DNA of 64,000 nucleotides from Jatrophihabitans sp. (GTDB taxonomy: Bacteria; Actinomycetota; Actinomycetes; Mycobacteriales; Jatrophihabitantaceae): contig JBPCMU010000076.1 in the NCBI GenBank assembly GCA_051001975.1, positions 4,836 through 68,835 of the forward strand, in the 5' to 3' direction. The notes beneath the pieces were generated by a model that saw only the letters and a program-made list of their open reading frames with translations, was not told where the DNA came from and made no database searches. Positions 5,286-23,628 of this stretch are shown here, in pieces (within the stretch, counting starts at the first letter, position 1; the number at the start of each line of letters is the position of its first letter). A program made the translations under genes and the position numbers.

Positions 5286-5360
5286 GCCCCCGTAGCTCAG
5301 GGGATAGAGCACCGCCCTCCGGAGGCGGTGGCGCAGGTTCGAATCCTGCCGGGGGCACCA
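5286..5360 (+). tRNA. tRNA-Arg (anticodon CCG), encoded CCA end
   Basis: Hand-folded cloverleaf: acceptor GCCCCCG/CGGGGGC, D arm GCTC-AGGGGATA-GAGC, anticodon arm CCGCC-CTCCGGA-GGCGG, T arm GCAGG-TTCGAAT-CCTGC. Confidence 0.9.
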
Positions 5361-5361
5361 C
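5312..5361 (+). repeat. attL core (within the intact tRNA-Arg)
   Basis: CCGCCCTCCGGAGGCGGTGGCGCAGGTTCGAATCCTGCCGGGGGCACCAC, identical to 23579-23628. Confidence 0.85.
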
Positions 5362-5376
5362 GCGCAAGGCCCGTAT

Positions 5377-6576
5377 TCACTGGGCTGCGCTCCGATCCCG
5401 GACCACGTCGAGGTCGACCACAACGGCCGGGGGCAACAAATGGGCAACAGCAGCGGAGCGCGCCGAGTCCATCCGGTCGGCCACTTCGTCGAGCTGGTCG
5501 CCGAACAGGTGCCCGTACTGATCGAGGGTCATCGTCGCCGACTTGTGCCCGAGCATCTGCTGTACCACCTTGACGTTCGCGCCAGAAGCGATGGCCAGCG
5601 ACGCCGCGGTGTGCCGCAGCTCGTGCGGGTGCAGACCCTCTAGGCCGACTGCGGTCGCGGCCGCATCGAACGCGGCGTGCCGGAACACAGCCACCCGCAA
5701 CGCTCCTCCGCCCCGCACACCGGCGAACACCAGGTCGTCGCGACTCTTGCCGGCGACTTGTCCGGCCAGCTCGTCGACGAGGAATCGCGGGATGGGCACG
5801 TCTCGGCGCTCGTGGCCCTTCGGGGTGCCCCACACCTGGCCGCTCCCCTGCACAACGGTGACGGACTCCGCGATCTCGGCCCGGCGACGCAGTAGGTCAA
5901 GCCGGCCCACTCGCAACGCGGCCAGCTCTCCGAACCGCACCCCGGTGTAGGCGAGAAACAGCACGATGAGCCGGTAGTCGCCGGCGCGGCGTTCGCTGTG
6001 CCTGCGGTACTTGCTGATCAGCTCGGGGCGTGGCTGAGCGCACGCCTCGGCAAGCTGCTCGACCTCGGAGTGGGTGAGGTACCGCCGATCGCCGGCGACG
6101 ACTCGCGGCAGCGCGACGCCGTTGGCCGGGTTGCGCACCAGTCGGCCATCCCTGACCGCGAGATCCATCACGAGCGACAGAACCCGGTGGACCTTCCGTA
6201 CCGTCGCCGGTGAGCGCGTCGCGGTCAGTGTGGTGACCTATGCCTGCACGTCGGCATGCGTGACGTCGCCGAGGCGGACCGATCCCCAGCGCGGTGTCAC
6301 ATGCTCGCGCAGGATGCCGGCGTACCGCTCCCGCGTCGATGGTTTGAGGTGCGCCTGCCCATCGAGCCACCGCTGCGCCCAAGCCCCGACCGCGAGACGG
6401 GCCGCGGCCGGGTCAACATAGGACCCGGTCAGCTTCGAAGCCTCGACCGTTGTCAGGAACCGCTCCGCGTCAACCCTCCGGCCGAACGATTTGCTGCGCT
6501 GCTTACCGGCCGGATCGCGATAGTGAGCCCGCCACCGAACTGTCCCACCGCGCTCTCGCTTCTCGACGCTGGCCAT
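5377..6576 (-). pseudogene. tyrosine integrase interrupted by one in-frame TAG (6238-6240)
   Basis: ORFs 6238-6576 (N-terminal SAM-like domain) and 5377-6171 (catalytic domain with HELRHT...LGH) share one frame. Reading across gives ...THADVQA*VTTLTATRSPATVRKVHRVLSLVMDLAVRDGRL. Confidence 0.8.
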
Positions 6577-7148
6577 CAGTCGTCCCAGTCCGACCGAGCG
6601 CCACCAGCGGCGCCAACCTCGTCTGCGCCAAGGAAGCCTGCGACGCGTGCGCTCGAGACGCGTCGAGCGGCTGTGGCGCGAGAAACATGAAATGCCTGCT
6701 GAACCTGTTGCGTCGGAGCATCGCCGACTGCTCGGGCAATCCGATACTCCAATGCGACGAGCCGATGCATCCGCGTGCCCTCATCTTCATCTGGCCGGGC
6801 GAGGAGCCTGTGCTTCAAGGCGATCGTCGACAAGAGGCTTCGTAATGGACGACGCAGCAACGCCCGTAGCGGCACACCTCTGAGATCCTCGGTCGCGATC
6901 CCGTGTCCGGGCTCAGCCTCCATCGTCACGTTTGTCACGAGGTAGATACCCCCGACGGCATCAGCGCGCACACGCACAGTGATTTCTGGCCGCTCGGGCA
7001 ACTGCGCTGTCACCACAACCCATTGCGGGCCCCGCACGTCGGGCGCAACGTTGGCAGTCTTGCCGCGCTTCTCGATCCGAGCGTCCACGACCACGCCGCA
7101 AGACTGCCAACGCGACACGCCGTTGTCAATGCTGACTTGATGCACCAT
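6576..7148 (-). CDS. hypothetical protein with C-terminal HTH-like segment, stop/start-overlapped with the integrase
   Basis: 190-aa ORF. Its TGA overlaps the integrase ATG (TGATG at 6574-6578). C-terminus reads QQVQQAFHVSRATAARRVSSARVAGFLG. Confidence 0.55.
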   Translation of the reverse strand: MVHQVSIDNGVSRWQSCGVVVDARIEKRGKTANVAPDVRGPQWVVVTAQLPERPEITVRVRADAVGGIYLVTNVTMEAEPGHGIATEDLRGVPLRALLRRPLRSLLSTIALKHRLLARPDEDEGTRMHRLVALEYRIARAVGDAPTQQVQQAFHVSRATAARRVSSARVAGFLGADEVGAAGGARSDWDD

Positions 7149-7166
7149 GCGCGATGCTGTACCAAT

Positions 7167-7182
7167 TACTGGTGAACCAGTA
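7167..7182. promoter_or_regulatory. 16-bp palindrome TACTGGTGAACCAGTA in the divergent region between the HTH gene and xis (candidate switch operator)
   Basis: Perfect 7-bp arms with a 2-nt spacer in the 66-bp divergent intergenic region. Confidence 0.45.
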
Positions 7183-7214
7183 TCGTCAATGCTAGGTCAT
7201 CCACTGGAGGCAAC

Positions 7215-7406
7215 ATGCAAGCAATGGTCACGCTCGACGAGATCGCCGAGCGTCTACGGATTCCGGCCGGCACTCTGCGCTACTGGCGGCACCAGGGCCG
7301 CGGCCCTCGCACATTCCGGGTTGGACGTCGGGTCATGGCCTACGAGTCGGACGTCGAGGTGTGGCTGAAAGAGCAGTACGACGCCGATCCGCGAGCGACG
7401 GCCTGA
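7215..7406 (+). CDS. excisionase / MerR-AlpA-type HTH DNA-binding protein
   Basis: 63 aa: VTLDEIAERLRIPAGTLRYWRHQGRGPRTFRVGRRVMAYESDVEVWL. Confidence 0.75.
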   Translation: MQAMVTLDEIAERLRIPAGTLRYWRHQGRGPRTFRVGRRVMAYESDVEVWLKEQYDADPRATA

Positions 7407-7414
7407 CGATCTCG

Positions 7415-7921
7415 ATGCCCGGTCCAGCCCCCTCGCTTCCAACTTCAGAGACCAGCCGCCCCGGCAACGACTCCGGGTCGGCTCAGACGGACAGCACGTC
7501 TGTAGTAGCGCCTGCCGACGAAGACGACCGCGGGCCGTGCGGCCTGTGTCGTCGATCGACGCTGCACCGCGAGGACGCCGATGGCAACGACCTCGGTCGC
7601 TGCCCGATCGATCATGGCGCCAACCGCGGCCGCCAACCGACGCCTGCGGGAATGGAGCGTGCCGCATCCGGTACCGATGCGTGGTTCGCATCGTCGGCGG
7701 AACAGGCCCTCGTTGAACTGATCCGCATCGGCCATCGATGGACATCGGATGCGTTGTTCGAGATGGGAGTACCGAGGCCAGACAACGGTAACCGCGTAGG
7801 TGCGTTCCTCGCTCAAGCCGCACGTGACGGCCGAATCGTGAAAGTCGGTTACCGGCCGTCACCTCGCCCGTCACGAGCGGGTGGCGTGACCGCAGTCTGG
7901 CAGGGGCGCCGTGACCGATGA
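7415..7921 (+). CDS. hypothetical phage/plasmid-type protein with CxxC...CxxxH motif
   Basis: In-frame ATG at 7415 just after the xis stop. High third-position GC. CGLCRRSTLHREDADGNDLGRCPIDH. Confidence 0.5.
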   Translation: MPGPAPSLPTSETSRPGNDSGSAQTDSTSVVAPADEDDRGPCGLCRRSTLHREDADGNDLGRCPIDHGANRGRQPTPAGMERAASGTDAWFASSAEQALVELIRIGHRWTSDALFEMGVPRPDNGNRVGAFLAQAARDGRIVKVGYRPSPRPSRAGGVTAVWQGRRDR

Positions 7922-8666
7922 GCAGCCGCAACTGTGGCACCGCACTCGGTGGAGCGAGGCGATCTGGTCGTCGACCGAGCTGCGCCCGCTCGAGCGGCTG
8001 GTCGCTCTGGCGTATGCCGATCACGCCCGTTCCGGCGAGGAGGCGTGGGTGAGTTACGGGTCCATGATTCAGCGCACCGGATTGGGCCGCACGGCCGTGA
8101 TCAAGAGCGTGCGTCGCCTGCTGGACGCTGGCTGGCTGGTGTTAGTCAGGCCGTCGCGGCAGCAGCATCCTGCGGTCTACCGACTGGTCGTACCTAGCCG
8201 CCAGGGTGTCGTGTCGCGAACCTCTGAGGCTGTGGATAACCCATCCAGCGTGTCGTCTCGCGACACGCTGGGAAATCTCAGGGTGTCGCGTGGCGACGCC
8301 AGGGTGTCGCGTGGCGAACCCAACCTCAGTAACTACCCCAGAGATAACCTCAGCTGCAGCGGCGAAGCGAATCACTCAGCGAACGACATCGAGCAGCGCA
8401 TCGCGGACGCAGCTGTCACGGTCGGCCGACCGATCGACCGAACACGAGTTCTCGCTGAGCTGAAGAGACGCGGCGTCCGCTCCCCCGTCGCATATCTGCG
8501 GCAGATGCCCGACCGCGATATCGCTGACCTTGGCGGAGCGCCCCCGCCCGAACCGCTCCCCGCCTGGTGCGGACAGTGCGACGAGGCGAACCGGCAGTTC
8601 GACGTCGGCGGCGACCGTTGGGCTCCGTGCCCGCGGTGCAGCTCCGCAGCTCGGAGGCCGGCGTGA
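7911..8666 (+). CDS. winged-helix/HTH protein, putative replication initiator of the element
   Basis: 251 aa. N-terminus LERLVALAYADHA...YGSMIQRTGLGRTAVIKSVRRLLDAGWL. C-terminus WCGQCDE...PCPRC. Contains iteron-like repeats. Confidence 0.55.
   Translation: MTDEQPQLWHRTRWSEAIWSSTELRPLERLVALAYADHARSGEEAWVSYGSMIQRTGLGRTAVIKSVRRLLDAGWLVLVRPSRQQHPAVYRLVVPSRQGVVSRTSEAVDNPSSVSSRDTLGNLRVSRGDARVSRGEPNLSNYPRDNLSCSGEANHSANDIEQRIADAAVTVGRPIDRTRVLAELKRRGVRSPVAYLRQMPDRDIADLGGAPPPEPLPAWCGQCDEANRQFDVGGDRWAPCPRCSSAARRPA
8202..8317 (+). repeat. iteron-like cluster inside the putative rep gene
   Basis: CAGGGTGTCGCGTGGCGA at 8279-8296 and 8300-8317 (21-bp period). Variant CAGGGTGTCGTGTCGCGA at 8202-8219. Palindrome CCAGCGTGTCG-TCTCG-CGACACGCTGG at 8245-8271. 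Confidence 0.6.
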
Positions 8667-8854: not shown

Positions 8855-8874
8855 CCCACCGGAGGACCGACCGA

Positions 8875-9732
8875 ATGCCATCAACGGACATCGCTCGACG
8901 ATCAGATTTCCCGCTCGACGCCGCTTCGCAACTACAGCTGGCGAAGGCACTCGCCGACGCCGGCGTGCTGCCCGCGCACCTCCGCAAGGCGCCGGCGAAC
9001 ATTCTGGCCATCGGGATGGCGGCACGAGCCTTGGACATCCCGACCTGGACCGCGCTGCAACAGGTCGTACCGATCGACGGGAAGGTCTCCATCCAGGCCG
9101 ACCTCATGCGGGCGCTCATCCTGCGCGCCGGGCACCGCTTCCGCGTCGAGTCCGCCGAGCCCGAGTCAGCCACCGTCGCTCTGGTCCGTGCCGACGATTC
9201 CGAGTACACACACCGGGTCACCGTGACACTCGCCGAGATCCCGGCTGATCTCCGCAAGCGCCGCGCCTGGCAGGACTACCCCGCCGACATGCTGGTAGCG
9301 CGAGCGACCGCGAAGGTTGCCCGCCGCGCCTGTTCCGACGTCCTGAACGGCATGAGCTACACCCCCGACGAACTCGGAGCAGACACCGATCCGGACGGCC
9401 AAGGTTTGCCCGATGACCGCGAGCAGGACACCACGCGGCAGGATGCCCAGCCAGTGCCACCCCGCAGCGATAACCCGGCGCAGACCATCGTCGACGCTGA
9501 GATCGTCCCCGACTCGGACAACGCCGACGAGACTCTGCCCGCCACCACGGTCGAGCTCGACAGCGTGATCGCCGAGGCCGATCGGGCCGGCTTCACTCGC
9601 ACGCAGCTCGACCGGCACATCAGCGACACCTACGACGGCCGCACGCTCGCTTCCCTGACCCGGGCCGAGCTCCGTGCCGAGTGGCGCCGTCTGCACCAGG
9701 ACACGGCCACGGCCGAGGACGTGACCCGATGA
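8875..9732 (+). CDS. RecT-like single-strand annealing protein
   Basis: 285 aa: ANILAIGMAARALDIPTWTALQQVVPIDGKVSIQADLMRALILRAGH...WQDYPADMLVARATAKVARRACSDVL, with an acidic C-terminal tail. Good RBS GGAGGA. Confidence 0.6.
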   Translation: MPSTDIARRSDFPLDAASQLQLAKALADAGVLPAHLRKAPANILAIGMAARALDIPTWTALQQVVPIDGKVSIQADLMRALILRAGHRFRVESAEPESATVALVRADDSEYTHRVTVTLAEIPADLRKRRAWQDYPADMLVARATAKVARRACSDVLNGMSYTPDELGADTDPDGQGLPDDREQDTTRQDAQPVPPRSDNPAQTIVDAEIVPDSDNADETLPATTVELDSVIAEADRAGFTRTQLDRHISDTYDGRTLASLTRAELRAEWRRLHQDTATAEDVTR

Positions 9733-9983
9733 CGGCACCGCTCCTACCCACCGTGCGGCCCGGCGACGGCGGATCGGTGCTGGTCGTCGATTCCGTCGAA
9801 GGCTTCCATGTCCGCACCGAGCGCTACCGGGGACTGCGCGTCACCGTCGAAGCCGGCGCCGGCCGCGGCGCCTGGGTGCAACTCGCCGGCTTCGCCTTCA
9901 GCCCAGCAGACGCACACCGGCTCGCCAGCGCGCTCGGCTACGCCGCGACCGCGGCTAGCCACACCGGAACGGAGCACCGATGA
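9729..9983 (+). CDS. hypothetical protein
   Basis: ATGA overlap with the recT-like stop. 84 aa. Confidence 0.45.
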   Translation: MTAPLLPTVRPGDGGSVLVVDSVEGFHVRTERYRGLRVTVEAGAGRGAWVQLAGFAFSPADAHRLASALGYAATAASHTGTEHR

Positions 9984-10246
9984 CCGACACCACCAGCCAA
10001 CCTCGGGGCCAGCGGTTCGCACCTGACCAGCCGCTGCTCATACTCCATCCACCCGGCGACGTCGTCGCGTTGATTACCGACGCCCGGGCCACGGTCATGG
10101 TCCGCTGGACGCCAGAAGCCGGCTGGACATGCTCATGCCCGGCCCGGACGTCGTCCTGCGGGCACGTGCAGGCCGCTCGCCGCGTGATCGTCCTGGACTA
10201 TGAGCCTGACGACACGCATGCACCGTCGGCCGTCCCAACAGCCTGA
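9980..10246 (+). CDS. SWIM zinc-finger-like small protein
   Basis: 88 aa with CSCPARTSSCGH (CxCxnCxH). ATGA overlap with the upstream ORF. Confidence 0.55.
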   Translation: MTDTTSQPRGQRFAPDQPLLILHPPGDVVALITDARATVMVRWTPEAGWTCSCPARTSSCGHVQAARRVIVLDYEPDDTHAPSAVPTA

Positions 10247-10327
10247 TGCCGGTCCCGCCTGTCGCGTCGCACCACCCGGGTATGGAACAGGGCAACGGTC
10301 GGTGGACTCGAGCAAGACGGTCGGCGG

Positions 10328-11245
10328 GTGCAGACTCCATCGATGGACTTCTCAGTGCCCCCGGAATTCATCCAGCTCGCGCAGCAGCTCGACCAGGTCG
10401 CGGCCACGATCCGCGGCTACGTGACCGCAGAACCCACATGGGCCACCGACTCGCAGGCCGCGAACGAGATATCCGAGGAACAGAGCTACCTCGCGCTGCC
10501 CATGCCGCACCCCGTCGTACACACCCTGCTGACGCCTATCGGTGGACTCGGACAGGTACAGGATCACCTGGTCGCCATGGCCGCGGTCATCAGGGCCGAG
10601 AACTCGATCATGGCGCTGCACACGTTGCTTCGCCCGGTCCTCGTCGGTTGCGCCAACTCACGGTATGTCGCCGACCCTCAGATCAGCGGCCGAGAACGTC
10701 TGCGCAGAGCGATGAACATCGAGCTCGGCTCGTGCACGGAAATCATGAACCTTGTCGGGCGTGCCAGCGGCGATCAGCTGTCAAAATACGACGAGCGGCG
10801 GCGAAAGATAGCCAGCGGTGGGCGCGCCCTGGGATTCGCGGTCGTCAATCCGGAGATCAAAAAAACCAAGCACGTGTGGGCGCCCTGGCACCTCGGGCAG
10901 CCGCCGCCAACCGAGATGCGCCTCGTCGAGACGTTGCTGGAATCGTCGGAGGTGCCGCGCATCGGGTTGACGTTGTACCGCCTGCTGTCCGCGGCCGTCC
11001 ACGCCCAACCTCATACCTTGCAAATGTTCATACATCGCGAGTCTGCCGTTCCTTCTGGGATCGGCCATTCCCAGGTTCCAATACGGATGTCCGAGTCGAA
11101 CCTCGCCACGCTTCTGCTCGTCGCGGTCTCCGCAGCGACCCTCGCGGTGGACTCATGTGTGGCCCTCTTCGACTGGCCAGCCGATCCGTGGCGCGTCAAC
11201 GTGGTCCCCTTCTTTCGCCATCTCCAGACGCTCGTCGACGACTAA
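10328..11245 (+). CDS. orphan hypothetical protein (305 aa), predicted helical from composition
   Basis: Long ORF with visibly lower GC than its surroundings (for example GGAGATCAAAAAAACCAAGC). I recognise no motif. Confidence 0.55.
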   Translation: MQTPSMDFSVPPEFIQLAQQLDQVAATIRGYVTAEPTWATDSQAANEISEEQSYLALPMPHPVVHTLLTPIGGLGQVQDHLVAMAAVIRAENSIMALHTLLRPVLVGCANSRYVADPQISGRERLRRAMNIELGSCTEIMNLVGRASGDQLSKYDERRRKIASGGRALGFAVVNPEIKKTKHVWAPWHLGQPPPTEMRLVETLLESSEVPRIGLTLYRLLSAAVHAQPHTLQMFIHRESAVPSGIGHSQVPIRMSESNLATLLLVAVSAATLAVDSCVALFDWPADPWRVNVVPFFRHLQTLVDD

Positions 11246-11282
11246 CCTGCGTCGCCCCGCGCAATGACTCCGGCGCCTCCAC

Positions 11283-11681
11283 GTGCTGATCGCAAACGTC
11301 GACGGCCCACTCGCCGGGTTCCTCGCGATCGCGATCACTGACCTGCAGAAGCGCTTCGCCCTGTCATCGCTCAAAGCCCCGGCCGGAACCGACGAACTCG
11401 TTGCCGCGCTCACCCTGAACGCCACCGGACGCCAGACAACGCCAACGCTCGCGGAACTCGCCGAAGTCCTCGAATGTGTCTCCATGACCCGCTTGACCAT
11501 CGACTATGACGAAGCGGCCGAAGCGCTGCACGTCAGCCGCCGCAGCGTCGACCGACTCGTCGCCAGCGGCGAACTCAGCACAGTCAACATCGGCGGATCC
11601 GTCCGAATCAGGACCACAGATCTCTCGGGATACGTCGAATCGCTGATCACGATCAGCAGGAATGAGAGCCCCCGCACATGA
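11283..11681 (+). CDS. excisionase-family HTH DNA-binding protein
   Basis: C-terminus LTIDYDEAAEALHVSRRSVDRLVASGELSTVNIGGSVRIRTTDL. Possible alternative start ATG at 11484. Confidence 0.6.
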   Translation: MLIANVDGPLAGFLAIAITDLQKRFALSSLKAPAGTDELVAALTLNATGRQTTPTLAELAEVLECVSMTRLTIDYDEAAEALHVSRRSVDRLVASGELSTVNIGGSVRIRTTDLSGYVESLITISRNESPRT

Positions 11682-12553
11682 CCACCAAACCTCGACAGAC
11701 CCCGAAGCAGCGTGCGGTCAACGCGTACCTGGCAGCCCTCTCGCAGATCCTCGGCGGCGCAACGGACGTCGGGCTCGCTGACCTCGAGGAGAACCTCACA
11801 CGGGCCGCCGCCGGCTCACCGCTCGTCGAAGCCGAGGTCGCAGAATGCATCCGCACCGGACGGAAGCAACTCGCGAATGTCACAGCCATGCGAGCCAACG
11901 AGCGGGACCGGATAGCAACAGCAGCCGCCGGCGCAGCCATCACCACCCTGACAGCGGAACTTCACTGCGCACTGGTGGAGTTCGAGGGACAGTCCGATCT
12001 CGACCTCGCGGCGTCCGCCGCAGTGAAAGCCGACGCCACCTACGACAGCGTGCTGGCCCAGCTCGAGAAGGCAGTCGAACGAGCCGACATCGACAAGGTG
12101 ATGCGACTTCGCGGCGAAGTAGAGGTCACCCTGCCCCAGAAGGTCGCCGAGGCGCGACTGCGGCACCTGGAGCTTCAAGTCGGCCGTGCTGAGGCTCAGC
12201 GCGACTCGCTCGAACCTCGCACTGAGCAGGCGATCAGGGCCCAACGAGTCGCGTTGAAGGCCATCGAGGCCGCCAAACAAGCCCTGGACCAGGCTGTGGA
12301 GCGGCACACGCAACAGCGAGTCGAAGTCGCGCAAGCCGACGATCAGGTGCGACGAGCAAACGCCGTCCTCGCCGACCGCGAACAGCAACTCGAGGAGATG
12401 CGGGCCACCCACAAGGCTGAATCAAGCAAGCGACTCCGCCGCCTCGCCGGCCTCGCGGAACTATCCGCAGAGTCGACGCCCGACGAGCCTCACACCAGCA
12501 GCATCATGCAACGAGAACTGGAGTTCCAAGGCCGAGTACGTGGGCCCCGATGA
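11678..12553 (+). CDS. coiled-coil hypothetical protein
   Basis: 291 aa, rich in A/E/Q/R/L heptad-like stretches. ATGA overlap upstream. Confidence 0.5.
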   Translation: MTTKPRQTPKQRAVNAYLAALSQILGGATDVGLADLEENLTRAAAGSPLVEAEVAECIRTGRKQLANVTAMRANERDRIATAAAGAAITTLTAELHCALVEFEGQSDLDLAASAAVKADATYDSVLAQLEKAVERADIDKVMRLRGEVEVTLPQKVAEARLRHLELQVGRAEAQRDSLEPRTEQAIRAQRVALKAIEAAKQALDQAVERHTQQRVEVAQADDQVRRANAVLADREQQLEEMRATHKAESSKRLRRLAGLAELSAESTPDEPHTSSIMQRELEFQGRVRGPR

Positions 12554-12807
12554 CCGTCAACCTGGAACGCCTGCGAACCGACATCGTGCACCGGCTCCGA
12601 ACCCAAGCCCGCGCCCAGCTCGGCGACCCAGAGGCCGCCGACGCACTGCGAGAACTGCGATCCCCCACACCGGACGAGCTCCGCTACACAGCAGACACCC
12701 TCGCCGACGCAGACAAGCAACTCCGAGCAGAGGCCCGCCTCAAGGCCCTCCAAGGCGACACCCGGATCCGAGACATCCTCCGCCGCCTCGACGAGGGCAA
12801 CACGTGA
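12550..12807 (+). CDS. hypothetical protein
   Basis: 85 aa. ATGA overlap upstream. Confidence 0.45.
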   Translation: MTVNLERLRTDIVHRLRTQARAQLGDPEAADALRELRSPTPDELRYTADTLADADKQLRAEARLKALQGDTRIRDILRRLDEGNT

Positions 12808-16400: not shown

Positions 16401-17294
16401 CGGATCCAGCGAGAGAACAGCCAGATCCTCGCGGAGGCGTCCCGCCGCGATGCGGTCGGCGCCAGGCTGACCGCGGCGAACGCGAAGCTGGCCGCGGCGC
16501 AGAAGCTGTTCAACGACGAGCGGGCCACGGTCGCGTCGTCCTATAGCTCGAGCTTCGACATCACCCGCCTCGGCCAGAACGGCAGCGGGGCAGCCTCGGC
16601 CGATTCGATCCTGCGGGACGCGGACGTCACCGCGGCGCAGGCACTGACCTACCGGGCGCAGCTGGAGAAGCTGAAGCCGCGGATCGGCACGCAGCTGTAC
16701 CAGCAGCTGCAGGAAGCCGGCCCAGGGCAGGGCGCGTCGAACGTGGCTGCCTTGTCGACGGCGACGCCGCAACAACTGGCGCGGATCGCGGCGGACTACA
16801 AATCGGTTGCGAACACCGGGTTGGCCGCTGGCACATCGCTCGGGAACCTGCTGTACGGGCCGGGTGTGCAGGCGGCCGCGGGGCTGATCGCCGGGTTGAA
16901 GTCGCAGGAGAAGTCGATCCAGAACGAGATGACGCGCATCGCGAACCTCATCTCGAAGACGATCCGCAAGGAATTGCGGATGCACTCGCCGTCGCTGGAC
17001 GCCTACGACGCGATGACCAACTACGGGGCGGGCATGGTCGGCGGCCTTGCTGATCAGCACGCTCCGGTCGAGGCGATGGCGAAATCGCTGGCGAACAAGG
17101 TGTCGGTGAAGCCGGCGGTGCCAGGTCTGCCGCTCGGCTACACACCGACCGGGCTCGGGTCCGCGTTGGGCGGCGGCCCTCTGACGATGCACGTGCGGAT
17201 CGGTGACACCGAGCTTCGGGAGATCACGCTGGCCACGGTCACCGACGAGATGACCGGGCTGACCCGGGAGTTCGAGCTCGGCCCGCAACCGTGA
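13404..17294 (+). CDS. phage tail tape-measure-like protein
   Basis: 1296 aa. N-terminus AYMEIVPSFRGI. Central Gly/Ala-rich hydrophobic segments, long Ala/Gln-rich helical regions, and a late HSPSLDAYDAMTNYGAGMVGGL motif typical of tape-measure proteins. Confidence 0.75.
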   Translation: MTEPGGYDAGSAYMEIVPSFRGILEKIKAEARGWGDTAGTSFSDAFSSKVKERTSNTPLGPGRGQAVRNGEQAGGAFGDAFRTRVEASTRNLRAIRIDADTKPAEAKLQLIRFQLEALSRQDIGVDLSSKDAVERIAALESELRTLTGPEHDVRVRIDASAAAAELAKVRGEIAALDSPIGDVDTKTASATKSMSGLWTAALILGASAIPVLAAGAAGVGALGAAGATLLLGVKGASAEMKAGTELGRRYSGVLNVIKSDVAGLEHTAAQGLFPGFDRSAANLHQLMPALNNEARSLSGYLGDAGAHVVHGMAGGFITLEPLVTKIVADLDRGAAAFDKYANGGGLQKFGEWAQQNLPSIEHDIGQLLMLVARLLAAGADSGLSILNALGAVAEAINKIPMPVLEALLPLVTGTLLAWKGYTIVAGILKGVNVALDAYIVRTNTAAVATARLGAAELATGAEGEIGGLGAGAKSAARGGKTASAGEFLALGNGVAVPLVLAGLATQIVGQLIHKQSQTQPAGTGPGPSGEDYTKLGTYLQAQTYKDLGGAIGGFLSGGHSTSTYGSGVQKAIEQNRAKEQQKNAPAAGPMIFGKSAGAVTTSQDVAAFSDASALSKTAAAHQAAAEAALNQSAAEAQNTLQMQYAGDKAGLLQQALTKLNTSTLDTAEAQTQFYQQLNTTAATFKSNKGAIEGHSAAALADQSALESLARSTQATALAESKAGRDGVKVLNDRKAAVEETFRKQGTLTAAVQKWIDTLFKVPKNLPATVAHLDNKAADKRLQTYLASLDKISRTENTTVNVKTGTAITRMGQLVTYYNALHDKTITVTTETRRGAGSGTDALGSRAAFGGSFAYGGGMWPGYEPGLDSIPIQTPRGPGMVSKGEAILVPEAVMGLGGPRGIYDINRSFAPRVNGHTAAYGFGNGGVTGFASGGAQTAAQRRVLANSQASLRLTIDTKGIHELTASIAGSRSSIAAAAARLVAELAQADARGLTSASFVKRIQRENSQILAEASRRDAVGARLTAANAKLAAAQKLFNDERATVASSYSSSFDITRLGQNGSGAASADSILRDADVTAAQALTYRAQLEKLKPRIGTQLYQQLQEAGPGQGASNVAALSTATPQQLARIAADYKSVANTGLAAGTSLGNLLYGPGVQAAAGLIAGLKSQEKSIQNEMTRIANLISKTIRKELRMHSPSLDAYDAMTNYGAGMVGGLADQHAPVEAMAKSLANKVSVKPAVPGLPLGYTPTGLGSALGGGPLTMHVRIGDTELREITLATVTDEMTGLTREFELGPQP

Positions 17295-17632: not shown

Positions 17633-17872
17633 CTACTCACGGAATGCCCGGCAGTAGTCCTCGATCGTGATTCCCGCCGACTTGATCAATCCGCCCAAGG
17701 TTCCGCGCTTGACTGGGTTGTGTGCTGGGATGGAAAGTACCGACCGGTGCCCCGGCTTCGTCATGACGATGTGGGAACCCTTCCCGCGTTTCGGATGCTC
17801 TATCCAGCCGAGGTGAGCAAAGGCCTTCACGTGGCTTCGACACCCGGCGATCGGCAGGTCGGACAGCCCCAC
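17633..17872 (-). CDS. hicA: type II toxin HicA family (mRNA interferase)
   Basis: 79 aa: KAFAHLGWIEHPKRGKGSHIVMTKPGHRSVLSIPAHNPVKRGTLGGLIKSAGI. Starts 4 nt after the hicB stop. Confidence 0.8.
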   Translation of the reverse strand: MGLSDLPIAGCRSHVKAFAHLGWIEHPKRGKGSHIVMTKPGHRSVLSIPAHNPVKRGTLGGLIKSAGITIEDYCRAFRE

Positions 17873-17876
17873 CCGT

Positions 17877-18215
17877 CTAGAGGCTCAGGGCGAATTCGCG
17901 ATCGTCCTGCGCGTCATCGTTGTCGCCGAGGTCTGGGATGTGCGACGTCATTCGGACGGCGACTACTTGACCGATCGCGTCGGCAAGATTCGTCAATGCC
18001 GCCTCCTGGGTCTCACCCTCGGAAAAGCACCCCGGGAGGTCGACGCACTCCGCCGTCCAGCCGCCGTCCAGTTCGTCGCGCTCCAGTCGAACCCGGAAAC
18101 GCCACGTCGACGTGTCATCCGTTCTCTCGGACTCGAAGGCTCGAATCGAGCGTCTAAACCGTGCGAGCAACCTCTGCCAGGCTGATGCGGACGCGACCAT
18201 GTGTTCCCCTTGCAT
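17877..18215 (-). CDS. hicB: type II antitoxin HicB family
   Basis: WRFRVRLERDELDGGWTAECVDLPGCFSEGETQEAALTNLADAI. Start uncertain (ATG ending at 18215 or 18200). Confidence 0.75.
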   Translation of the reverse strand: MQGEHMVASASAWQRLLARFRRSIRAFESERTDDTSTWRFRVRLERDELDGGWTAECVDLPGCFSEGETQEAALTNLADAIGQVVAVRMTSHIPDLGDNDDAQDDREFALSL

Positions 18216-18330
18216 GCTTCCCCCGATGCCGCGATGGCTGACCAAATGTATCCCCCGCTGTCCAGTGCTGCCCTCCGTGGCCCCCAACGCGTGGGCAGCG
18301 ATGGTGCCACGCCGGCCGTAGGGTGCGCCC

Positions 18331-18504
18331 ATGAATCTGTGGAATTAAGTAATCGATGGCCTGGCAGCGATCGAGCGAGACGAAGACGACATCAGTCTTG
18401 ACCGGCGCCTACAGATTGTTCAGATCCGGGCGCTGCTGGCCATCGGTCAGGAGCTCTCCGCAATCCGTCATCAAGGAATCAACCCTGACTTCGACGCAGA
18501 CTGA
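18331..18504 (+). pseudogene. paralogue of the 20704-20877 small gene, with TAA at codon 6
   Basis: Same 174-nt length. Aligns to the second copy along its whole length, including the upstream box CGTAGGGTGCG (18317-18327). Reads MNLWN*VIDGLAAIERDEDD... Confidence 0.6.
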
Positions 18505-18573
18505 GATCCCGAACCATGGCCGGCGACTGCGGACAATCGATCCGCGGCGCGGACTGGCGAGCCTGGTCACCTG

Positions 18574-18873
18574 TCAGCTGCACGTCCCCGCCAGATTGCC
18601 GGCCGTCGCGCCACCGTCGCTGGCCATAGGCACGTCGCGCTTCACATAGCGCGGCGGCTCTCCAGCATCGTCCCTTCGCGAACGCCCATAGCCGCTGGCA
18701 CTTGCGGCTTCAGCCCACGGGATTGGGCTGAGGATTTGTCCGGCCAGCCAGGCGCTGAGGTGGCTCAACGACCCACCCAACTGACTAAGTGTGCGCGCCG
18801 CGATCGGATCATATCCGCAGGTACGGAAAGGGCACTTCACCTCGTCGTTCGCGTGGCAGGTCTGCCCGCGCAC
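18574..18873 (-). CDS. hypothetical Cys-containing ORF overlapping the SIR2 3' end (or a frameshifted SIR2 C-terminus)
   Basis: 99 codons, GTG start. By hand count its third-position GC across 18809-18873 is higher than in the SIR2 frame. CHANDEVKCPFRTC. Confidence 0.35.
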   Translation of the reverse strand: MRGQTCHANDEVKCPFRTCGYDPIAARTLSQLGGSLSHLSAWLAGQILSPIPWAEAASASGYGRSRRDDAGEPPRYVKRDVPMASDGGATAGNLAGTCS

Positions 18874-20134
18874 TGATCATCTGATTGATCCTGGCGCGCA
18901 CATCCGACGCGCTCCAATTTACGATCTCGCCGAGTACTTCTTCTGCCCGCTGAGGTATTACCAGCAGTCGACTCTGGTCCTGCGGCCATTGTCTGCAGAG
19001 GGACTTTTCGACGACCGAACGTTGGTCGGTCGGATCGCCCGCCGCCTGCGAGAAGGAAGGATCGACCACGAGCAACACACGGACAGGGTCAATATTCAGC
19101 CAGCGTGCGAGCATCTCGTTGATGTGATCGTCGGAAAAGGAATACCCGATCACTATCAGGCAAGTGGTGCCAGCAAGACGACTCTCAAGCTCCGACCTAA
19201 GCGCGAGGAACGGCCCGGGGGCGCGAAGCTTCTCTCGCCTGCCGAAGATGACAAACGGCGTCCAATCGTGAGCGACGCTCGGGTCGGTATCGCAACCGGT
19301 GGTGAGCACAGTCCTCGGTAATCGCACCGATGGCAAGGGGCCATCAGGCGAGTACGACCCGTACCGCGGGTCATCGTGGTCACGTGCCCAGTCCACCGAT
19401 CCGTGCAGTTTCAAGAGCCGCACTCCGTGATCCGGCAACACCACGCGACCCTGATTCTCCCAACTCTCAACTCCGGTGGAGCACCTGACATCCGCCAATC
19501 GCGCAGCGGTCTCGATCGTCAAGTCATAGTTGAGCGTTGCGATCGTGACCGCGTTGTTCCTTCCGAGTTCGACCAGCGGTCTGAGGTAATCGAGCCGAGC
19601 CTCATCTTGAACCGCCAAGAGTGGGACGAGGGACTTCACCATGGAATCGAGGAGTTGCTCGTAGACTTTGCCCGTACTGACCCCCATGGCATTTCGAACA
19701 ACGTCACGAAACGCTTTGTCCCGGGAGTGTCTCTGCACCGTCCATAGCGATCGCCGCTCCTGGTAATCCTTCAGAATCCCCGCAACCCAATCGGTTGCTC
19801 CCGCACCGCTGGTCTCGTCCATCGAATTGACGGCGTCCGCCCATTGCACGAATGGAGAAATCTCAACTCGGTCCCGACTGCCAAGGAGTTCAATCGCCGA
19901 CACCACAGTCTCGATGTCGGGCAACGTCTGGGGATCTTCGCCTCGAATGCCCGCGTGATGAATCATGGCCGATACGACGTACCGCAACGCAGCAGCCCGT
20001 TTGCCCGACGGGAACACCGATCGACCATCGCCGAGGTGGTCGATCATCAAGCCAGTGAGCTCGCTGGCCAGCGGGAGATCAGCCGCCTTGGACGCTCCAG
20101 CGCCAAGAAGAAAGATGGGTCGTTCGATTGTCAT
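18809..20134 (-). CDS. SIR2_2-family protein (putative NAD+ hydrolase, defence-type)
   Basis: Start MTIERP at 20134 with RBS GGAAGGGA. Motifs FLLGAGASKAADLP, TLNYD, LLKLHGSVDW and LIVIGYSFSDDHIN. Lower GC than the core genome. Confidence 0.75.
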   Translation of the reverse strand: MTIERPIFLLGAGASKAADLPLASELTGLMIDHLGDGRSVFPSGKRAAALRYVVSAMIHHAGIRGEDPQTLPDIETVVSAIELLGSRDRVEISPFVQWADAVNSMDETSGAGATDWVAGILKDYQERRSLWTVQRHSRDKAFRDVVRNAMGVSTGKVYEQLLDSMVKSLVPLLAVQDEARLDYLRPLVELGRNNAVTIATLNYDLTIETAARLADVRCSTGVESWENQGRVVLPDHGVRLLKLHGSVDWARDHDDPRYGSYSPDGPLPSVRLPRTVLTTGCDTDPSVAHDWTPFVIFGRREKLRAPGPFLALRSELESRLAGTTCLIVIGYSFSDDHINEMLARWLNIDPVRVLLVVDPSFSQAAGDPTDQRSVVEKSLCRQWPQDQSRLLVIPQRAEEVLGEIVNWSASDVRARINQMISARADLPRERRGEVPFPYLRI

Positions 20135-20438
20135 CAGGCGTCCCTTCCGCGTAGGCATTCCACCGGCCGGTCGCAGGCGAACTGGCATACCGTCTCACCC
20201 TCAGCGCCGCTGAAAAAGCACGGGAGTGCAGCCATGGGCCTTTCGACGAAACGGTTTGATAGCAGGGGCCCCCGTCGGGCTGAGAGTTGGGGCATCGACG
20301 TATCCGGTTCGTTCCGCTCTCAGGCTGGTCTTCTGATAGCTCGCAGGGGCACGGCCGCGGCGGTCGCTCCGGCTCATCTCGGTGGCCATCGTCGACCGTG
20401 AACGCTGCCGGATCGTCGTTGTCGTACCAGGTCGCCAG

Positions 20439-20573
20439 TCAGTCCCGGGCCATCCAGCGGGCGCCCTCGTAAGTGCACCAACATGTGGCGCCGGTAGTTC
20501 CGTCGTCGACCTCGATGAACGCCGTGAACATCTGCTCTTCAGGCACGATGCGGACGGTCACAGCCTTGGGCAT
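20439..20573 (-). CDS. short ORF upstream of SIR2, ended by TGA with the frame staying open beyond it
   Basis: 44 codons (MPKAVTVRIVPEEQMFTAFIEVDDGTTGATCWCTYEGARWMARD) with 36/44 G/C third positions. The same frame is open for 119 further codons to the next stop at 20079-20081. No obvious RBS. Confidence 0.35.
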   Translation of the reverse strand: MPKAVTVRIVPEEQMFTAFIEVDDGTTGATCWCTYEGARWMARD

Positions 20574-20703
20574 AAGGGCGAAACGCTAGACCGGAAGATG
20601 CCCGAGCACAAGACTGACGCTCCGTCGCACCATCGACTGGGCTGCGGGTGGGTAGCGGGCTGACCGGGAGCGTAAAAGCGCCAGCCGTCGTAGGGTGCGG
20701 AGC

Positions 20704-20877
20704 ATGGATCTGTGGAACGAGGCTTTCGCCGACCTAGCCGCGATCGAGCGAGACGACAAAGCCCCGGATATTGACCGGCGTCTACAGATCGCTCAGATCC
20801 GGGCACTCCTGGCCATCGGCCAGCAGCTGTCAGAGATCCGTCACCTAGGCATCAACCCCAAATTCGACACGGACTGA
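20704..20877 (+). CDS. small hypothetical protein (57 aa from the ATG, or 60 aa from the GTG at 20695)
   Basis: MDLWNEAFADLAAIERDDKAPDIDRRLQIAQIRALLAIGQQLSEIRHLGINPKFDTD. Intact paralogue of 18331-18504. Confidence 0.55.
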   Translation: MDLWNEAFADLAAIERDDKAPDIDRRLQIAQIRALLAIGQQLSEIRHLGINPKFDTD

Positions 20878-20973: not shown

Positions 20974-21838
20974 TCACCGCGGTAGCGCAAGTATCGCTGC
21001 CCGGCGTTGTTCGTCGTCGATCATGGTGTATACCGCGGTTGTGGCCGGCGACGCGTGGCGCAGCAGCTCCTGCGCGACTCGTAGGTTCCCGCCCGACGCT
21101 CGGAGGATCTCTGTTCCGAAGTGGTGTCGGAGCTGGTGGGCGGTGGCGTTCACGCCGGATCGGCGCAGCGCGGCACTTATCACCCCCGAGACCGAGTTCG
21201 CGGTCACCGGCTCCCCTTCACAGTAGGGCGACGGGAACCACCACCCCACCGCCGGGTATCGCGCCGCCTCGGCGGCGATGACCGGATGAACTGGCAGATC
21301 TGCGGCCACCTTGCCCTTACCGACGACACGCAGGCTATCTCCGGTGAAGTCTTCACCGCGGATCTTCGCGATCTCGTGGACCCGCAGACCCTGATATGCG
21401 CCGAGCAGGATCATCGTCCGAGTCCGACCGTAGAACCGCCCCGACTCGAGCACCTGCTGCAACTGCAGCACACTGACCGGCCGCCGGTGACCGGCGGGGC
21501 GTCTTCGGCGGGTGCAGTTTTCCGGTCGGATCGTCGAGGCGGTGGTCCATGATCACCAGCCAGCGGAACCACGACCGGAGGTGCTGAAAGTAGGTCGACC
21601 TGGTCCCCGCGGAGAACAGATCGCTGCTGTCAGCGAAGAACCCTGCCAGGTGCTGCCACGAACACTCCGCGGCCGGCACACCGGTGCGAGTCTCGAGCAG
21701 GCGGACCAACTGCACCCGGTCATCAATTGTCCGGGGACTCATCGCGCCAGCCACCATCCACAGCGTCCAGTCCGCCAGCAGCCCGTCGGTCTGAGCCGAC
21801 GACGATCGAGGCTGGGCGTCGAAACGGTGGCGGGTCAT
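20974..21838 (-). pseudogene. tyrosine recombinase, frameshifted
   Basis: N-terminal domain ORF 21353-21838 and catalytic ORF 20974-21471 (HQLRHHF...LLRHAS...Y) are in different frames. The junction is near 21485 (..KTPRR | PVSVLQLQQVLES). Confidence 0.7.
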
Positions 21839-21908
21839 TCCGGTACTCCAGCAATCACGATGCGCATCGCAGGTGCTCGAACGCTCTCATCGGGATACAC
21901 CGTGAGGC

Positions 21909-22739
21909 TCACAGCACGGCCGCCGCTCTGACGGCAGTGCTCAGCGCACCCTCCGGCACCGCCGTGTACAGAGCGGTTGTCTCCGGCTTGGTGTGTCCCA
22001 GCAACGTCTGGACCGCTCTGAGATCCCGCTCCGCCGCGTAGGCGGTGGACGCGAACCTGTGCCGCAGCATATGTGCGGTCACCCCGGGCCCCAGCTGCGC
22101 GGACATCAGTTTTCCGACATGTGCCGGCGTCATCGGTGTGTCCGGCTGCGTTGGCCTCGGGAACAGCCAGCCGGCCGGTCTACCGGCGATCGCCTGAGCG
22201 ACGATCGGCGGCAAGGGAACTACCCGCACCCGGTCACCCTTGCCACGCACCCGCAGCGCACCGGCGCTGATGTCATCGGTATGGACCTTCGCGATCTCAC
22301 ACCGGCGCAGACCGCACACGGCCGCCAGCAAGATCATCAGCCTCAGTCGGCTACCCGACCCGGCCAACGCAAACCTGATCCGCTCATCCGGCGCGGGCCG
22401 AGGAACGCCAATGCTGGCCGGCACTCCCGGCAATGTAATCGTTGGATCGGCCTCACACCGTCCGGTCAAGACCGCCCACCGGTAGAAGCCTCGGATCGTG
22501 GTGCGAAACGACCGGCGCGTCTCCGCACGCCAGCTCCTCGAAGCCAGCCAGGACACCAGGACGGCAGGTGTCACCTCCCACGGAGTCACCGTGGAAAGAT
22601 CTCGTGCCAACCTCGCGAGCTGGAGACGCCTCAGATCGATCGTCGTCTCCGGACGTCCACCTGCTCGCATGAAGTCTGACCACTCCGCGATCGCCTCGAC
22701 CCAACGCTCAGGCACCGACCACCGCTCCGGGCCGCTCAC
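21909..22739 (-). CDS. tyrosine recombinase (XerC/D-like), intact
   Basis: 276 aa: GLRRCEI...HMLRHRFAS...LLGHTKPETTALY. Confidence 0.8.
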   Translation of the reverse strand: MSGPERWSVPERWVEAIAEWSDFMRAGGRPETTIDLRRLQLARLARDLSTVTPWEVTPAVLVSWLASRSWRAETRRSFRTTIRGFYRWAVLTGRCEADPTITLPGVPASIGVPRPAPDERIRFALAGSGSRLRLMILLAAVCGLRRCEIAKVHTDDISAGALRVRGKGDRVRVVPLPPIVAQAIAGRPAGWLFPRPTQPDTPMTPAHVGKLMSAQLGPGVTAHMLRHRFASTAYAAERDLRAVQTLLGHTKPETTALYTAVPEGALSTAVRAAAVL

Positions 22740-23080
22740 GCCCTGCGCCCCTCGAGGTCGAAATCGAACCCCGTGATGATCTCCAGCCGGTCCGCAGCGT
22801 CAAGCAACGCCGCGGCGAACAGGCGCGCCTCGACAGCGGTGAGCGCGAGACCAGCCACCTGGATGCACGCCGGCTCGCCCGGCCCTCCTTCCGGGTTGCC
22901 GACCGTTTCGCACCGAGCAACCTCCACCTCGACGACCCGGCCCCCGTCCAGCTGCCGCTCAACCGCGCCAATCACCAGCTGATGCGTGCGCAGCACCGAA
23001 CCGTCGAACTCACGGCACAGGTAGTCGTCCAAGTCGTGCCTGTCGTCCAGGTCGCACCAGTCGGGGCACGCAGGCACCAT
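22736..23080 (-). CDS. hypothetical protein with CPxWC motif
   Basis: MVPACPDWCDLDDRHDLDDYLCREF... GTGA overlap with the downstream recombinase. The upstream part of track ORF 22736-23533 looks non-coding. Confidence 0.5.
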   Translation of the reverse strand: MVPACPDWCDLDDRHDLDDYLCREFDGSVLRTHQLVIGAVERQLDGGRVVEVEVARCETVGNPEGGPGEPACIQVAGLALTAVEARLFAAALLDAADRLEIITGFDFDLEGRRA

Positions 23081-23127
23081 GAACCCGCCGTGTGAGCTGG
23101 TCAGCAGACCGTTCGACACCCTGCGGC

Positions 23128-23423
23128 TCACGAGGTCACGCACTCGGCCGCGTGAGCCAGCTCGAGCAGCGCGCCTGGGTGACACCGTCCCCGCCCCCGC
23201 GTCCAACTCGATCGCGTCGAACCGCTCCAATGCAGGCTCGACGAGGGTTGCCCCGGACCGCTCGTAGGGCTGAACTCGGCGACCATCGAGACCGTCGTCC
23301 CCGCCAGCCGACGCCAAGTGATCGATGCCTCGTTCAGATCGTGCTCCGTCGCCCACGCCGGCGGATCCCACCCGTTGATGCGGTGAATCTTCGCGGCGCT
23401 GCGGTGGATCGTGGTGCTGTTCA
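23128..23423 (-). CDS. hypothetical protein (possibly frameshifted)
   Basis: MNSTTIHRSAAKIHRINGWDPPAWATEHDL... has high third-position GC. The C-terminal part is low-complexity, and a second frame carries plausible sequence. Confidence 0.3.
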
Positions 23424-23578
23424 TGGATGGGCTCCCTCGTAGAGTTGATCTTGCTCTGGGCAACGCTGGGGCAACGGCAGGGCAGCAAACAGCCAGCTTC
23501 GGCCAACGCTGCCAACGCGTGGAGGTACCGCAAATTGGGAGGTCCACGCCCTACCGGTGTCAGCCAACGCCGGATGAT

Positions 23579-23628
23579 CCGCCCTCCGGAGGCGGTGGCG
23601 CAGGTTCGAATCCTGCCGGGGGCACCAC
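23579..23628 (+). repeat. attR core (3' fragment of tRNA-Arg, not a functional tRNA)
   Basis: Identical to 5312-5361. The 5' half of the tRNA is absent. Confidence 0.85.

Follow-up and report, generated by a model that had tools for sequence, protein, structure and literature searches.

An 18.3-kb element in tRNA-Arg(CCG) of Jatrophihabitans sp. with a lone phage tape-measure gene: a possible, now crippled phage satellite

Phage satellites that use a tape measure of their own were first demonstrated in 2025-2026 for the phage-inducible chromosomal island-like elements (PLEs) of Vibrio and were reported once in Mycobacteriaceae, for the elements named EPIPs. In Vibrio cholerae, PLEs act as satellites of phage ICP1; they bring along a tape measure and a chaperone of their own and form chimeric tails, and deletion of the PLE tape-measure gene lowers transduction by 96-99.9%; putative tape-measure genes were shown in other putative satellites as well (Mathur, Boyd et al., Nature 2026, PMC12987554). 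The EPIPs, 11 kb in size, are satellites of the Mycolicibacterium aichiense prophage HerbertWM; they encode a tape measure and have tails longer than those of their helper (Qian et al., bioRxiv 2025, PMC12822802). Here we analyzed a stretch of 64,000 nucleotides from Jatrophihabitans sp. (assembly GCA_051001975.1, contig JBPCMU010000076.1, positions 4,836 to 68,835), hereafter called the window. It carries an att-bounded element of 18.3 kb that is inserted in a tRNA-Arg(CCG) gene and comprises a tape-measure gene as its sole recognisable virion gene. Judged from its gene content, the element would be unable to produce virions of its own and is neither an autonomous phage nor a conjugative element. 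We see about an even chance that it is a phage-derived, now crippled element of the satellite type, comparable to PLEs and EPIPs.

A first-pass annotation of the window, made from the letters alone, had classified the element as neither a complete prophage nor an integrative and conjugative element (ICE) of the actinomycete type (AICE). This classification stands, as head, terminase, tail-tube, lysis, FtsK/TraB and relaxase genes were not found. Three points go beyond it: the integrase gene int1 contains a nonsense codon, the lone tape measure recurs in other elements, and the second recombinase is of a phage type that lies far from the tRNA in related elements, too.

Integration site and present state of the element

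The insertion is defined by the following features:

5286..5360, + strand: tRNA-Arg(CCG), the 3' part of which is attL (ARAGORN; Rfam RF00005, 70.8 bits)
5312..5361, no strand: attL, 50-bp core from the anticodon stem to CCA plus 1 (exact repeat D2)
23579..23628, no strand: attR, copy of the 50-bp core, not a tRNA (exact repeat; no tRNA call by ARAGORN or Rfam)
5377..6576, - strand: int1, tyrosine integrase of 399 codons that runs toward the tRNA (Pfam Phage_integrase 1.2e-22, Phage_int_SAM_3)

The tRNA-Arg(CCG) gene is complete; it is the only tRNA that ARAGORN calls in the window and the only RNA family match of Rfam within positions 4000-27000. From the first base of its anticodon stem (tRNA position 27) to one base beyond CCA, thus over its last 49 bases plus one, it is repeated exactly at the right end of the element, until the next base (G vs C) ends the identity. 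In the right copy, the 26 nt at the 5' end of the tRNA are missing. A 50-nt exact repeat cannot be a product of chance in 64 kb. The duplication had been described in the first-pass annotation as reaching from the anticodon stem to CCA with only the left copy being a full tRNA, which agrees with the exact repeat and the single ARAGORN and Rfam call. A sensitive scan inside the element revealed no third att copy or remnant, the longest match being 11 nt or less.

Relatives of int1 were sought in one genome per species. Altogether 223 were found, and the best 80, with 60-74% identity, were kept. Their hosts are Nocardioidaceae, Propionibacteriaceae, Jatrophihabitantaceae, Geodermatophilus, Aeromicrobium and other Actinomycetota. 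A convergent tRNA gene follows the stop codon of the integrase within about 220 bp in 69 of the 80 loci, in the same orientation as in the window. Targets are tRNA-Glu(CTC) in 30 loci, tRNA-Arg(CCG) in 24, which include most of the closest relatives, tRNA-Glu(TTC) in 13, one of them behind an adjacent tRNA-Asp, and tRNA-Ala in 2. Because the relatives of int1 adjoin tRNA genes convergently, we consider the repeat an integration scar and int1 the cognate integrase. Integration of the element by int1 is secure in our view, and the insertion into tRNA-Arg(CCG) claimed in the first-pass annotation is borne out. During this event, an attP with a 50-bp copy of the tRNA 3' end recombined with the 3' half of the tRNA-Arg(CCG) gene under catalysis by int1; the tRNA was rebuilt at attL and the displaced 50 bp were left behind at attR.

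Beside the integrase, a homologue of the element's 60-aa Xis-like gene was found in 68 of the 80 loci. The cargo of the int1 family varies, and TrwC relaxase-helicases adjoin in four of the examined tRNA-Arg(CCG) relatives (Geodermatophilus and others). The int/xis unit is therefore a shared module and not a marker of one element type. At three loci of the family (L066, L070 and L095), a full tRNA-Arg(CCG) lies 1.7-5 kb beyond the integrase, and at L066 a partial tRNA copy directly follows the integrase gene. Tandem arrays appear to be common at tRNA-Arg(CCG).

An in-frame TAG interrupts int1 at 6238-6240, which is codon 113 of 399 (reading DVQA*VTT). All 80 relatives have tryptophan at this position, so that the lesion is a transition of TGG to TAG. 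Otherwise int1 is intact, with similarity to its relatives over the full length. Amber suppression was considered and rejected, given that no suppressor tRNA was found among the 49 tRNAs of the genome. The inactivation is recent, since the att repeats are still perfect. With this lesion and the frameshift of a second recombinase, int3, the element is probably immobile and locked in place in this genome. A second stop codon, TGA at 20439-20441 in a short open reading frame (ORF) of the right half, lies at a probable tryptophan site, as compared to the proven one of int1; both would be G-to-A transitions of TGG.

The host assembly is a draft of 134 contigs representing a genome of 3.79 Mb, in which none of the element's genes has a paralogue elsewhere. 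The element is missing from both other genomes of the genus. In the complete genome G002, the left flank and the tRNA are present at 79% identity, and neither an att repeat nor an integrase was found at the tRNA-Arg locus; the 27.6 kb that follow the tRNA are specific to G002, and synteny with the window is resumed only at window position 26738. In G001, the tRNA and left flank are likewise present without the element, and the sequence downstream of the tRNA differs. The comparison with an empty site, which the first-pass annotation had proposed, thus confirms the absence of the element from G001 and G002, but the downstream flank differs as well and a clean attB with both flanks is not available. 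These genomes mark tRNA-Arg(CCG) as a variable hotspot of the genus. A further 3.1 kb, from attR to the resumption of synteny (23629-26738), are also absent from G002. They encode a TetR-like protein, a membrane protein, an ArsR-like helix-turn-helix (HTH) protein, a ferredoxin with a 65% paralogue on contig C121 and a 224-aa protein, and may be the remnant of an older island or simply a variable region. A second tRNA-Arg(CCG) was called by ARAGORN on contig C69 (12363-12452), with an unusual length of 90 nt. Should this call be spurious, CGG codons would be served only by the tRNA in which the element is inserted.

The tape measure, its operon and related elements

Reading frames were scored with a codon model trained on long ORFs of the genome, and candidates were scanned with Pfam, PHROGs, NCBIfam and PADLOC. 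As the DNA has 60-70% G+C, most of the listed ORFs are spurious. For example, a frame of 644 codons is open on the minus strand at 15354-17288, antisense to the tape-measure gene, and is an artefact of high G+C. The ORF at 10246-11289 was likewise rejected as a spurious frame, and a tblastn search with it against phages gave no match. The late-type operon comprises:

11283..11681, + strand: 132-aa HTH_17 protein, head of the operon (Pfam HTH_17 1.6e-9; phrog_66)
11678..12553, + strand: 291-aa all-helical coiled-coil protein, with 4-bp overlaps on both sides (AlphaFold pLDDT 77.5, long helices)
12550..13094, + strand: two small coupled ORFs of 85 and 96 aa (codon score)
13216..13407, + strand: 63-aa zinc-ribbon protein P0048, the stop codon of which overlaps the tape-measure start (ATGA)
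13404..17294, + strand: 1296-aa tape measure P0001, intact, last gene of the + strand operon (tape-measure homology)

Tightly coupled and with several 4-bp overlaps, the genes between 11283 and 17294 make up a compact operon, the last gene of which has the highest codon score of the island. The C-terminal fifth of P0001 matches annotated tape measures in 140 actinophage records, and its database relatives bear PhageMin_Tail, M23 or SLT domains. Distant relatives (26-34% identity) reside in ordinary tail modules (L029/L030, the P0040 contig, L122/L123, L124, L127 and the prophage of genome G140), where genes for a major tail protein and two chaperones precede the tape measure and distal tail genes come after it. 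When viral contigs and genome contigs were scanned with the tape measure or the A1 alignment, nothing was found; metagenomes gave a single short contig with an ordinary tail module. No ORF of the element matches capsid, portal, terminase, tail tube, lysin, FtsK/TraB or relaxase families in Pfam, PHROGs and NCBIfam, which upholds the absence of capsid, portal, terminase, lysis and FtsK/TraB genes noted in the first-pass annotation. A megablast search with the entire element gave zero matches in 50,697 phage records.

Among the other genes of the operon, the 132-aa HTH_17 protein is, by its position, a possible candidate for a small-terminase-like or regulatory protein. Its positional counterpart on contig L028, introduced below, matches the small-terminase (TerS) family phrog_57 at 4.7e-6, in the HTH region only. 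For the 291-aa coiled-coil protein, Foldseek found no significant fold match, and the searches of Pfam, PHROGs, NCBIfam and PADLOC and a tblastn against phages gave no result either. The 96-aa ORF has a weak match to a head-scaffold family (phrog_12880, 1.3e-4).

The closest relative of P0001, P0003, can be aligned with it end to end and reaches 47% identity in the best segment. It is encoded on L028, a contig of 10.4 kb that is not circular. In order, this contig encodes a small integrase, two ORFs, DUF3631, two further ORFs, an HTH_17 protein, a 218-aa ORF, an HNH protein, a 53-aa ORF, a 105-aa zinc-ribbon protein and the tape measure, followed by a gene on the opposite strand. Integrase and replication module (DUF3631) of L028 are unrelated to those of the window. 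The two tape measures form a clade with 100/100 support in our tree, and the zinc-ribbon protein lies directly upstream of the tape measure in both elements. With 47% identity (E 4e-10), the two zinc-ribbon proteins are each other's only match in the 3.8-Mb genome and all loci compared. Upstream of the pair, both elements lack a chaperone gene, and each operon ends with the tape measure.

A second element with a comparable design was found in genome G083. It measures 16.9 kb and is integrated in tRNA-Thr(CGT) (C9 at about 271577-288460; L036:9578 to L037:6461), with 48 bp from the 3' part of this tRNA repeated exactly at its two ends (L036:9578-9625 and L037:6414-6461). Starting from the tRNA, it encodes a large integrase, an HTH_3 repressor, small early genes, a TerS-like protein, a large terminase (TerL), ORFs of 63, 227 and 96 aa, a tape measure of 1299 aa, DUF6941, DUF2283, an int2-like integrase (37% identity) and, at the distal repeat, a DUF6907-like ORF. 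TerL is intact with 531 aa and Walker A and B motifs. Portal, capsid and tail-tube genes were not found in the G083 element. Thus, as in the window, a large integrase at the tRNA is combined with a lone tape measure and with a small integrase plus DUF6907 at the far end.

In the third genome with a homologous tape measure, G140, two elements lie in tandem at tRNA-Lys(CTT), delimited by three copies of a 36-bp core (C1 at about 2207037-2255920; L126, L034, L035, L125). The first, of 6.3 kb, comprises a large integrase and an Xis-like gene, and G083 carries a homologue (33% identity) of a gene from it. The second is a complete prophage of 42.5 kb with the homologous tape measure and an int2-like protein (41%) as sole recombinase at the att-distal end. 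An ORF for a repressor-like HTH protein runs into the att core at the tRNA end of this prophage, and the small integrase lies at the other end. This layout recalls the integration-dependent immunity of the mycobacteriophages BPs and Brujita.

Early genes, cargo and the second recombinase block

The remaining genes of the element are:

6576..7148, - strand: DUF6214/Xre-like HTH protein, candidate repressor (Pfam DUF6214 1.2e-6, Xre-like-HTH weak)
7224..7406, + strand: 60-aa HTH_17 protein, Xis/Cro-like, divergent from the repressor-int unit (Pfam HTH_17 4.6e-10; phrog_66 excisionase 8.5e-8)
7415..7921, + strand: early gene with no assigned function (phrog_21939 7.4e-7, C-terminal part)
7911..8666, + strand: lambda-O-like replication initiator (HTH_36) (PHROG replication-initiation families 1.5e-8 to 1e-4; Pfam HTH_36)
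8875..9732, + strand: RecT-like single-strand annealing protein (phrog_561 1.6e-34; Pfam RecT weak)
9753..10246, + strand: two small ORFs of 76 and 88 aa (codon score; no family match found)
10328..11245, + strand: orphan 305-aa cargo gene P0002 in a stretch of lower GC (one homologue; no family match found)
17633..18332, - strand: toxin-antitoxin pair hicA (17633-17872) and hicB (17877-18332) (Pfam HicA_toxin 2.9e-12; HicB_lk_antitox 1.2e-4)
18330..18504, + strand: small gene, diverged copy 1 (direct repeat D1, 175 nt, 77%; 68% aa identity with copy 2)
18809..20188, - strand: SIR2_2-family protein, 459 aa (Pfam SIR2_2 6.5e-12; PADLOC Aga_SIR2 2e-38)
20079..20573, - strand: short ORF upstream of SIR2, cut by TGA at 20439-20441 (translation ARD*LATW)
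20695..20877, + strand: small gene, copy 2, 60 aa (D1 repeat part 20703-20877)
20974..21838, - strand: int3, frameshifted tyrosine recombinase with N part at 21353-21838 and C part at 20974-21471 (Phage_integrase 1.5e-16; XerC-like N-terminal part)
21909..22739, - strand: int2, intact 276-aa tyrosine integrase, transcribed away from attR (Pfam Phage_integrase 2.6e-17)
22736..23533, - strand: DUF6907 protein with a 4-bp overlap with int2 (DUF6907 2e-5, residues 147-251)

All components that the first-pass annotation had listed (int, xis, rep-like and recT-like genes, one structural gene, a toxin-antitoxin pair, SIR2 and a second recombinase block) were recovered. Within the initiator gene, iteron-like repeats of the families D4 and D5 occupy 8199-8320. 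The cargo protein P0002 has a single homologue among 5.8 billion proteins (P0039, 47%), which is encoded on a 79-kb JGI contig (L038) in an integrative element with int, HTH_17/Xis, Prim-Pol, DUF3631 and RusA. NERD, SDH_protease and a type I restriction-modification system surround P0039 there, which hints at a defence role for P0002. The AlphaFold model of P0002 is unusable (pLDDT 42).

The SIR2 protein is a candidate for a stand-alone NADase defence gene. Models of Argonaute-associated SIR2 proteins are its top match (2e-38), and no partner such as Argonaute/pAgo, TIR, HerA or others was found among the scanned neighbours. Measured against the described SIR2 defence systems (SIR2-pAgo, Thoeris, DSR, SIR2-HerA), the 459-aa protein shows neither a partner nor the size of the DSR type. 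The SIR2 cassette is flanked by the two copies of the small gene, each of which is divergently paired with a toxin-type operon, hicBA in one case and the short ORF with SIR2 in the other. This pairing suggests a shared small regulator.

At the far end, the two parts of int3 lie in different frames, which marks a frameshift, and int2 is intact. The DUF6907 gene probably starts near 23080. Relatives of int2 with 40-44% identity occur in four IMG/VR viral contigs. Because of these and of the G140 prophage, int2 is regarded as a phage integrase type. A weak counterpart of the DUF6907 protein is encoded upstream of the int2-like gene in G083. Judged from the coordinates, int1, attP, DUF6907, int2 and int3 would be collinear on one strand of the excised circle. 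An assignment to the 'recombinase in trio' elements was rejected: just two recombinases are adjacent, one of them frameshifted, the third is located on the other side of attP, and such elements do not include DUF6907. Elsewhere in the window, a 1.5-kb stretch at about 41378-42978 has 24 or more matches scattered over G002 (73-77% identity); it probably represents an insertion sequence that multiplied in the sister species.

Satellite-type element or relic, and comparison with known systems

Several aspects are in line with a satellite-type element. With 18.3 kb, the element has its own integrase, regulators and a replication module; it lacks most virion and lysis genes, yet retains an intact tape-measure gene coupled to a zinc-ribbon gene. 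Its modules follow an order as in phage-inducible chromosomal islands (PICIs), its operons are compact and intact, and defence cargo stands at the end. The G083 island, with intact TerS-like, TerL and tape-measure genes and no other virion gene, points in the same direction, as do the zinc-ribbon/tape-measure pair of the otherwise unrelated L028 and the experimental precedents of PLEs and EPIPs. The gene order is that of a satellite that depends on a helper: the integrase and repressor genes are divergent from an Xis/Cro-like gene, an O-like initiator with iterons and RecT form the replication module, the late-type operon follows, and HicAB and SIR2 complete the layout. Integration, gene content, lesions and the recurring layout are established by the sequences; dependence on a helper and use of the tape measure in virions we infer. 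Capsid, tail tube, tail tip and lysis would then come from a helper siphophage, and the element would contribute its own tape measure, leading to chimeric tails as in PLE satellites.

Other observations weigh against this reading. To judge by its sequence, the genome contains no recognisable helper phage: TerL_ATPase, HK97 capsid and sheath genes are missing, and so are homologues of the structural proteins of related phages. Within the element, no small terminase, capsid-redirection gene or tail assembly chaperone was recognised. Apart from zinc-ribbon and tape measure, no homologues shared between the window and L028 were detectable. The tape measure of G083 clusters with those of complete phages and not with that of the window; the lone-tape-measure state therefore arose at least twice, which fits repeated decay just as well. 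The family is rare, with members in 3 of about 540 genomes of the order (the window's host, G083 and G140), and since relatives were found by a tape-measure search, remnants that happened to keep this gene are over-sampled. A tblastn comparison of the element's proteins with EPIP Alyssa1 (OR387110) gave nothing below E 0.009, the best match being E 0.076 over 75 aa of the tape measure. Furthermore, the three lesions (the TAG of int1, the frameshift of int3 and the TGA of the short ORF) represent decay in progress, and the presence of a different integrase type at each end suggests that two elements were fused.

These points lead to the strongest alternative, a chimeric cryptic prophage remnant. 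Here, an element of the int1 type and a temperate siphophage of the int2 type would have been arranged in tandem at tRNA-Arg(CCG), and subsequent deletions would have removed the internal att and most structural and lysis genes, leaving a decaying relic of 18.3 kb in which the tape measure was kept by accident. We take this to be a real contender, somewhat short of an even chance. The array of G140 is an actual example of such an arrangement, the relatives of int2 in viral contigs fit the presumed second partner, the tRNA-proximal position of int1 and the distal one of int2 are what a fusion predicts, and the gene shared by G083 with the small G140 element fits as well. In addition to the lesions, the missing helper and the sampling bias, high GC keeps long frames open by chance, as the antisense frame mentioned above illustrates, and the length of a frame by itself says little here. 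On the other side, no trace of an internal att was detected, the genes from 7224 to 17294 are all intact, tightly coupled and on one strand, and no truncated phage gene marks the presumed deletion junctions. Independent deletions are also an unlikely source of the zinc-ribbon/tape-measure unit because it is shared by two otherwise unrelated small elements, and in G083 at least 3-4 clean deletions would have had to spare TerS, TerL and the tape measure. The satellite and the relic reading are not fully exclusive, as the fusion may itself have spawned a satellite, and this copy is decaying either way.

Other explanations carry less weight. That the element is fully functional and still able to excise, the TAG of int1 being a sequencing or assembly error or being read through, is unlikely: a single base change in a draft of 134 contigs, perfect att repeats and an otherwise intact int1 would fit, but no tRNA of the genome is a suppressor and the further lesions of the island would remain. 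A conjugative or mobilisable element (AICE, ICE or integrative and mobilisable element) that is not phage-derived might be considered in view of the TrwC-type relaxase-helicases beside the nearest tRNA-Arg(CCG) relatives of int1. It is very improbable, however, given that relaxase, FtsK/SpoIIIE-type Tra, RepSA and type IV secretion genes were not found in the element, that its replication and recombination genes are of phage type (O-like, RecT) and that it has a tape measure. Least credible of all are an effector of a contractile injection system (Sle1-type) instead of a virion part, or a mere tRNA duplication. Effectors of this kind related to tape measures are known from Actinobacteria (PMC13277306), but Phage_sheath_1 has no match anywhere in the genome and the relatives of the protein belong to ordinary siphophage tail modules. 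The repeat, in turn, lacks the 5' 26 nt of the tRNA in its right copy, and next to the left one lies an integrase whose family targets tRNA genes.

Returning to the satellite reading, one might tentatively go further and regard the elements of the window, L028 and G083 as a hitherto undescribed group of phage satellites that carry tape measures in high-GC Actinomycetota; we hold this broader proposal to be somewhat less probable than the satellite nature of the present element. Siphophage tape measures would then have been captured at least twice. Such elements would insert into tRNA genes and combine a large tyrosine integrase on the tRNA side with a small phage-type integrase and DUF6907 on the far side, so that after excision int1, attP, DUF6907 and int2 would share one strand of the circle in this order. 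One lineage would have swapped the tail chaperones for a coupled zinc-ribbon protein, and the other virion parts would be hijacked from a helper. If true, a chromosomal, tRNA-integrated version would extend the tape-measure strategy to another actinobacterial lineage, with a zinc-ribbon partner in place of the chaperone and a second integrase at the far end, and would provide a pair of genes with which tail hijacking could be examined. Should it be a fused relic, it is an ordinary defence-carrying island, and its value is confined to a well-documented case of tandem-array decay.

Compared to known integrated elements, AICEs of the pSAM2 type share the phylum, the integration into a tRNA 3' end and the module of int and Xis (HTH_17). 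The element differs from them in that FtsK/SpoIIIE-type Tra, RepSA, Spd and Pif are missing and that it replicates with phage-type genes. Rac, e14 and DLP12 of Escherichia coli K-12 are cryptic prophage remnants, among which Rac keeps recET. Like the element, they are att-bounded and combine an integrase, few early genes and isolated late genes with toxin-antitoxin or defence cargo and inactivating mutations. In contrast, the operons of the window are intact and tightly coupled, and the layout with a lone tape measure recurs in L028 and G083. PICIs, including the SaPIs, resemble the element in their size class of 10-18 kb, in site-specific integration with a direct repeat and in the order of integrase, divergent regulators, iteron initiator, morphogenesis or packaging genes and accessory or defence genes. 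They differ, as the element has no recognisable small terminase, capsid-size redirection or Ppi/Pti-type gene, its only virion gene is the tape measure, and a second integrase block is located distally.

Among the satellites with tape measures, EPIPs differ from the element by a serine integrase, a small terminase, a head-tail adaptor, a stopper and a capsid protein. Their genomes measure 11 kb, and particles of them have been isolated. They have in common with it an actinobacterial host, an HTH protein and small ORFs upstream and the lack of tail-tube and lysis genes; in EPIP Alyssa1, as in the window, the tape measure ends the operon and a reverse-strand gene follows. PLEs belong to another host phylum, exploit a myovirus helper and encode a tail assembly chaperone and a baseplate hub, whereas the element has a siphophage-type tape measure coupled to a zinc-ribbon protein, no recognisable chaperone and a broken integrase. 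Nevertheless, the PLEs and the element agree, by description, in that they are small and integrated, lack capsid, tail-tube and lysis genes, carry anti-phage cargo and encode a tape measure of their own.

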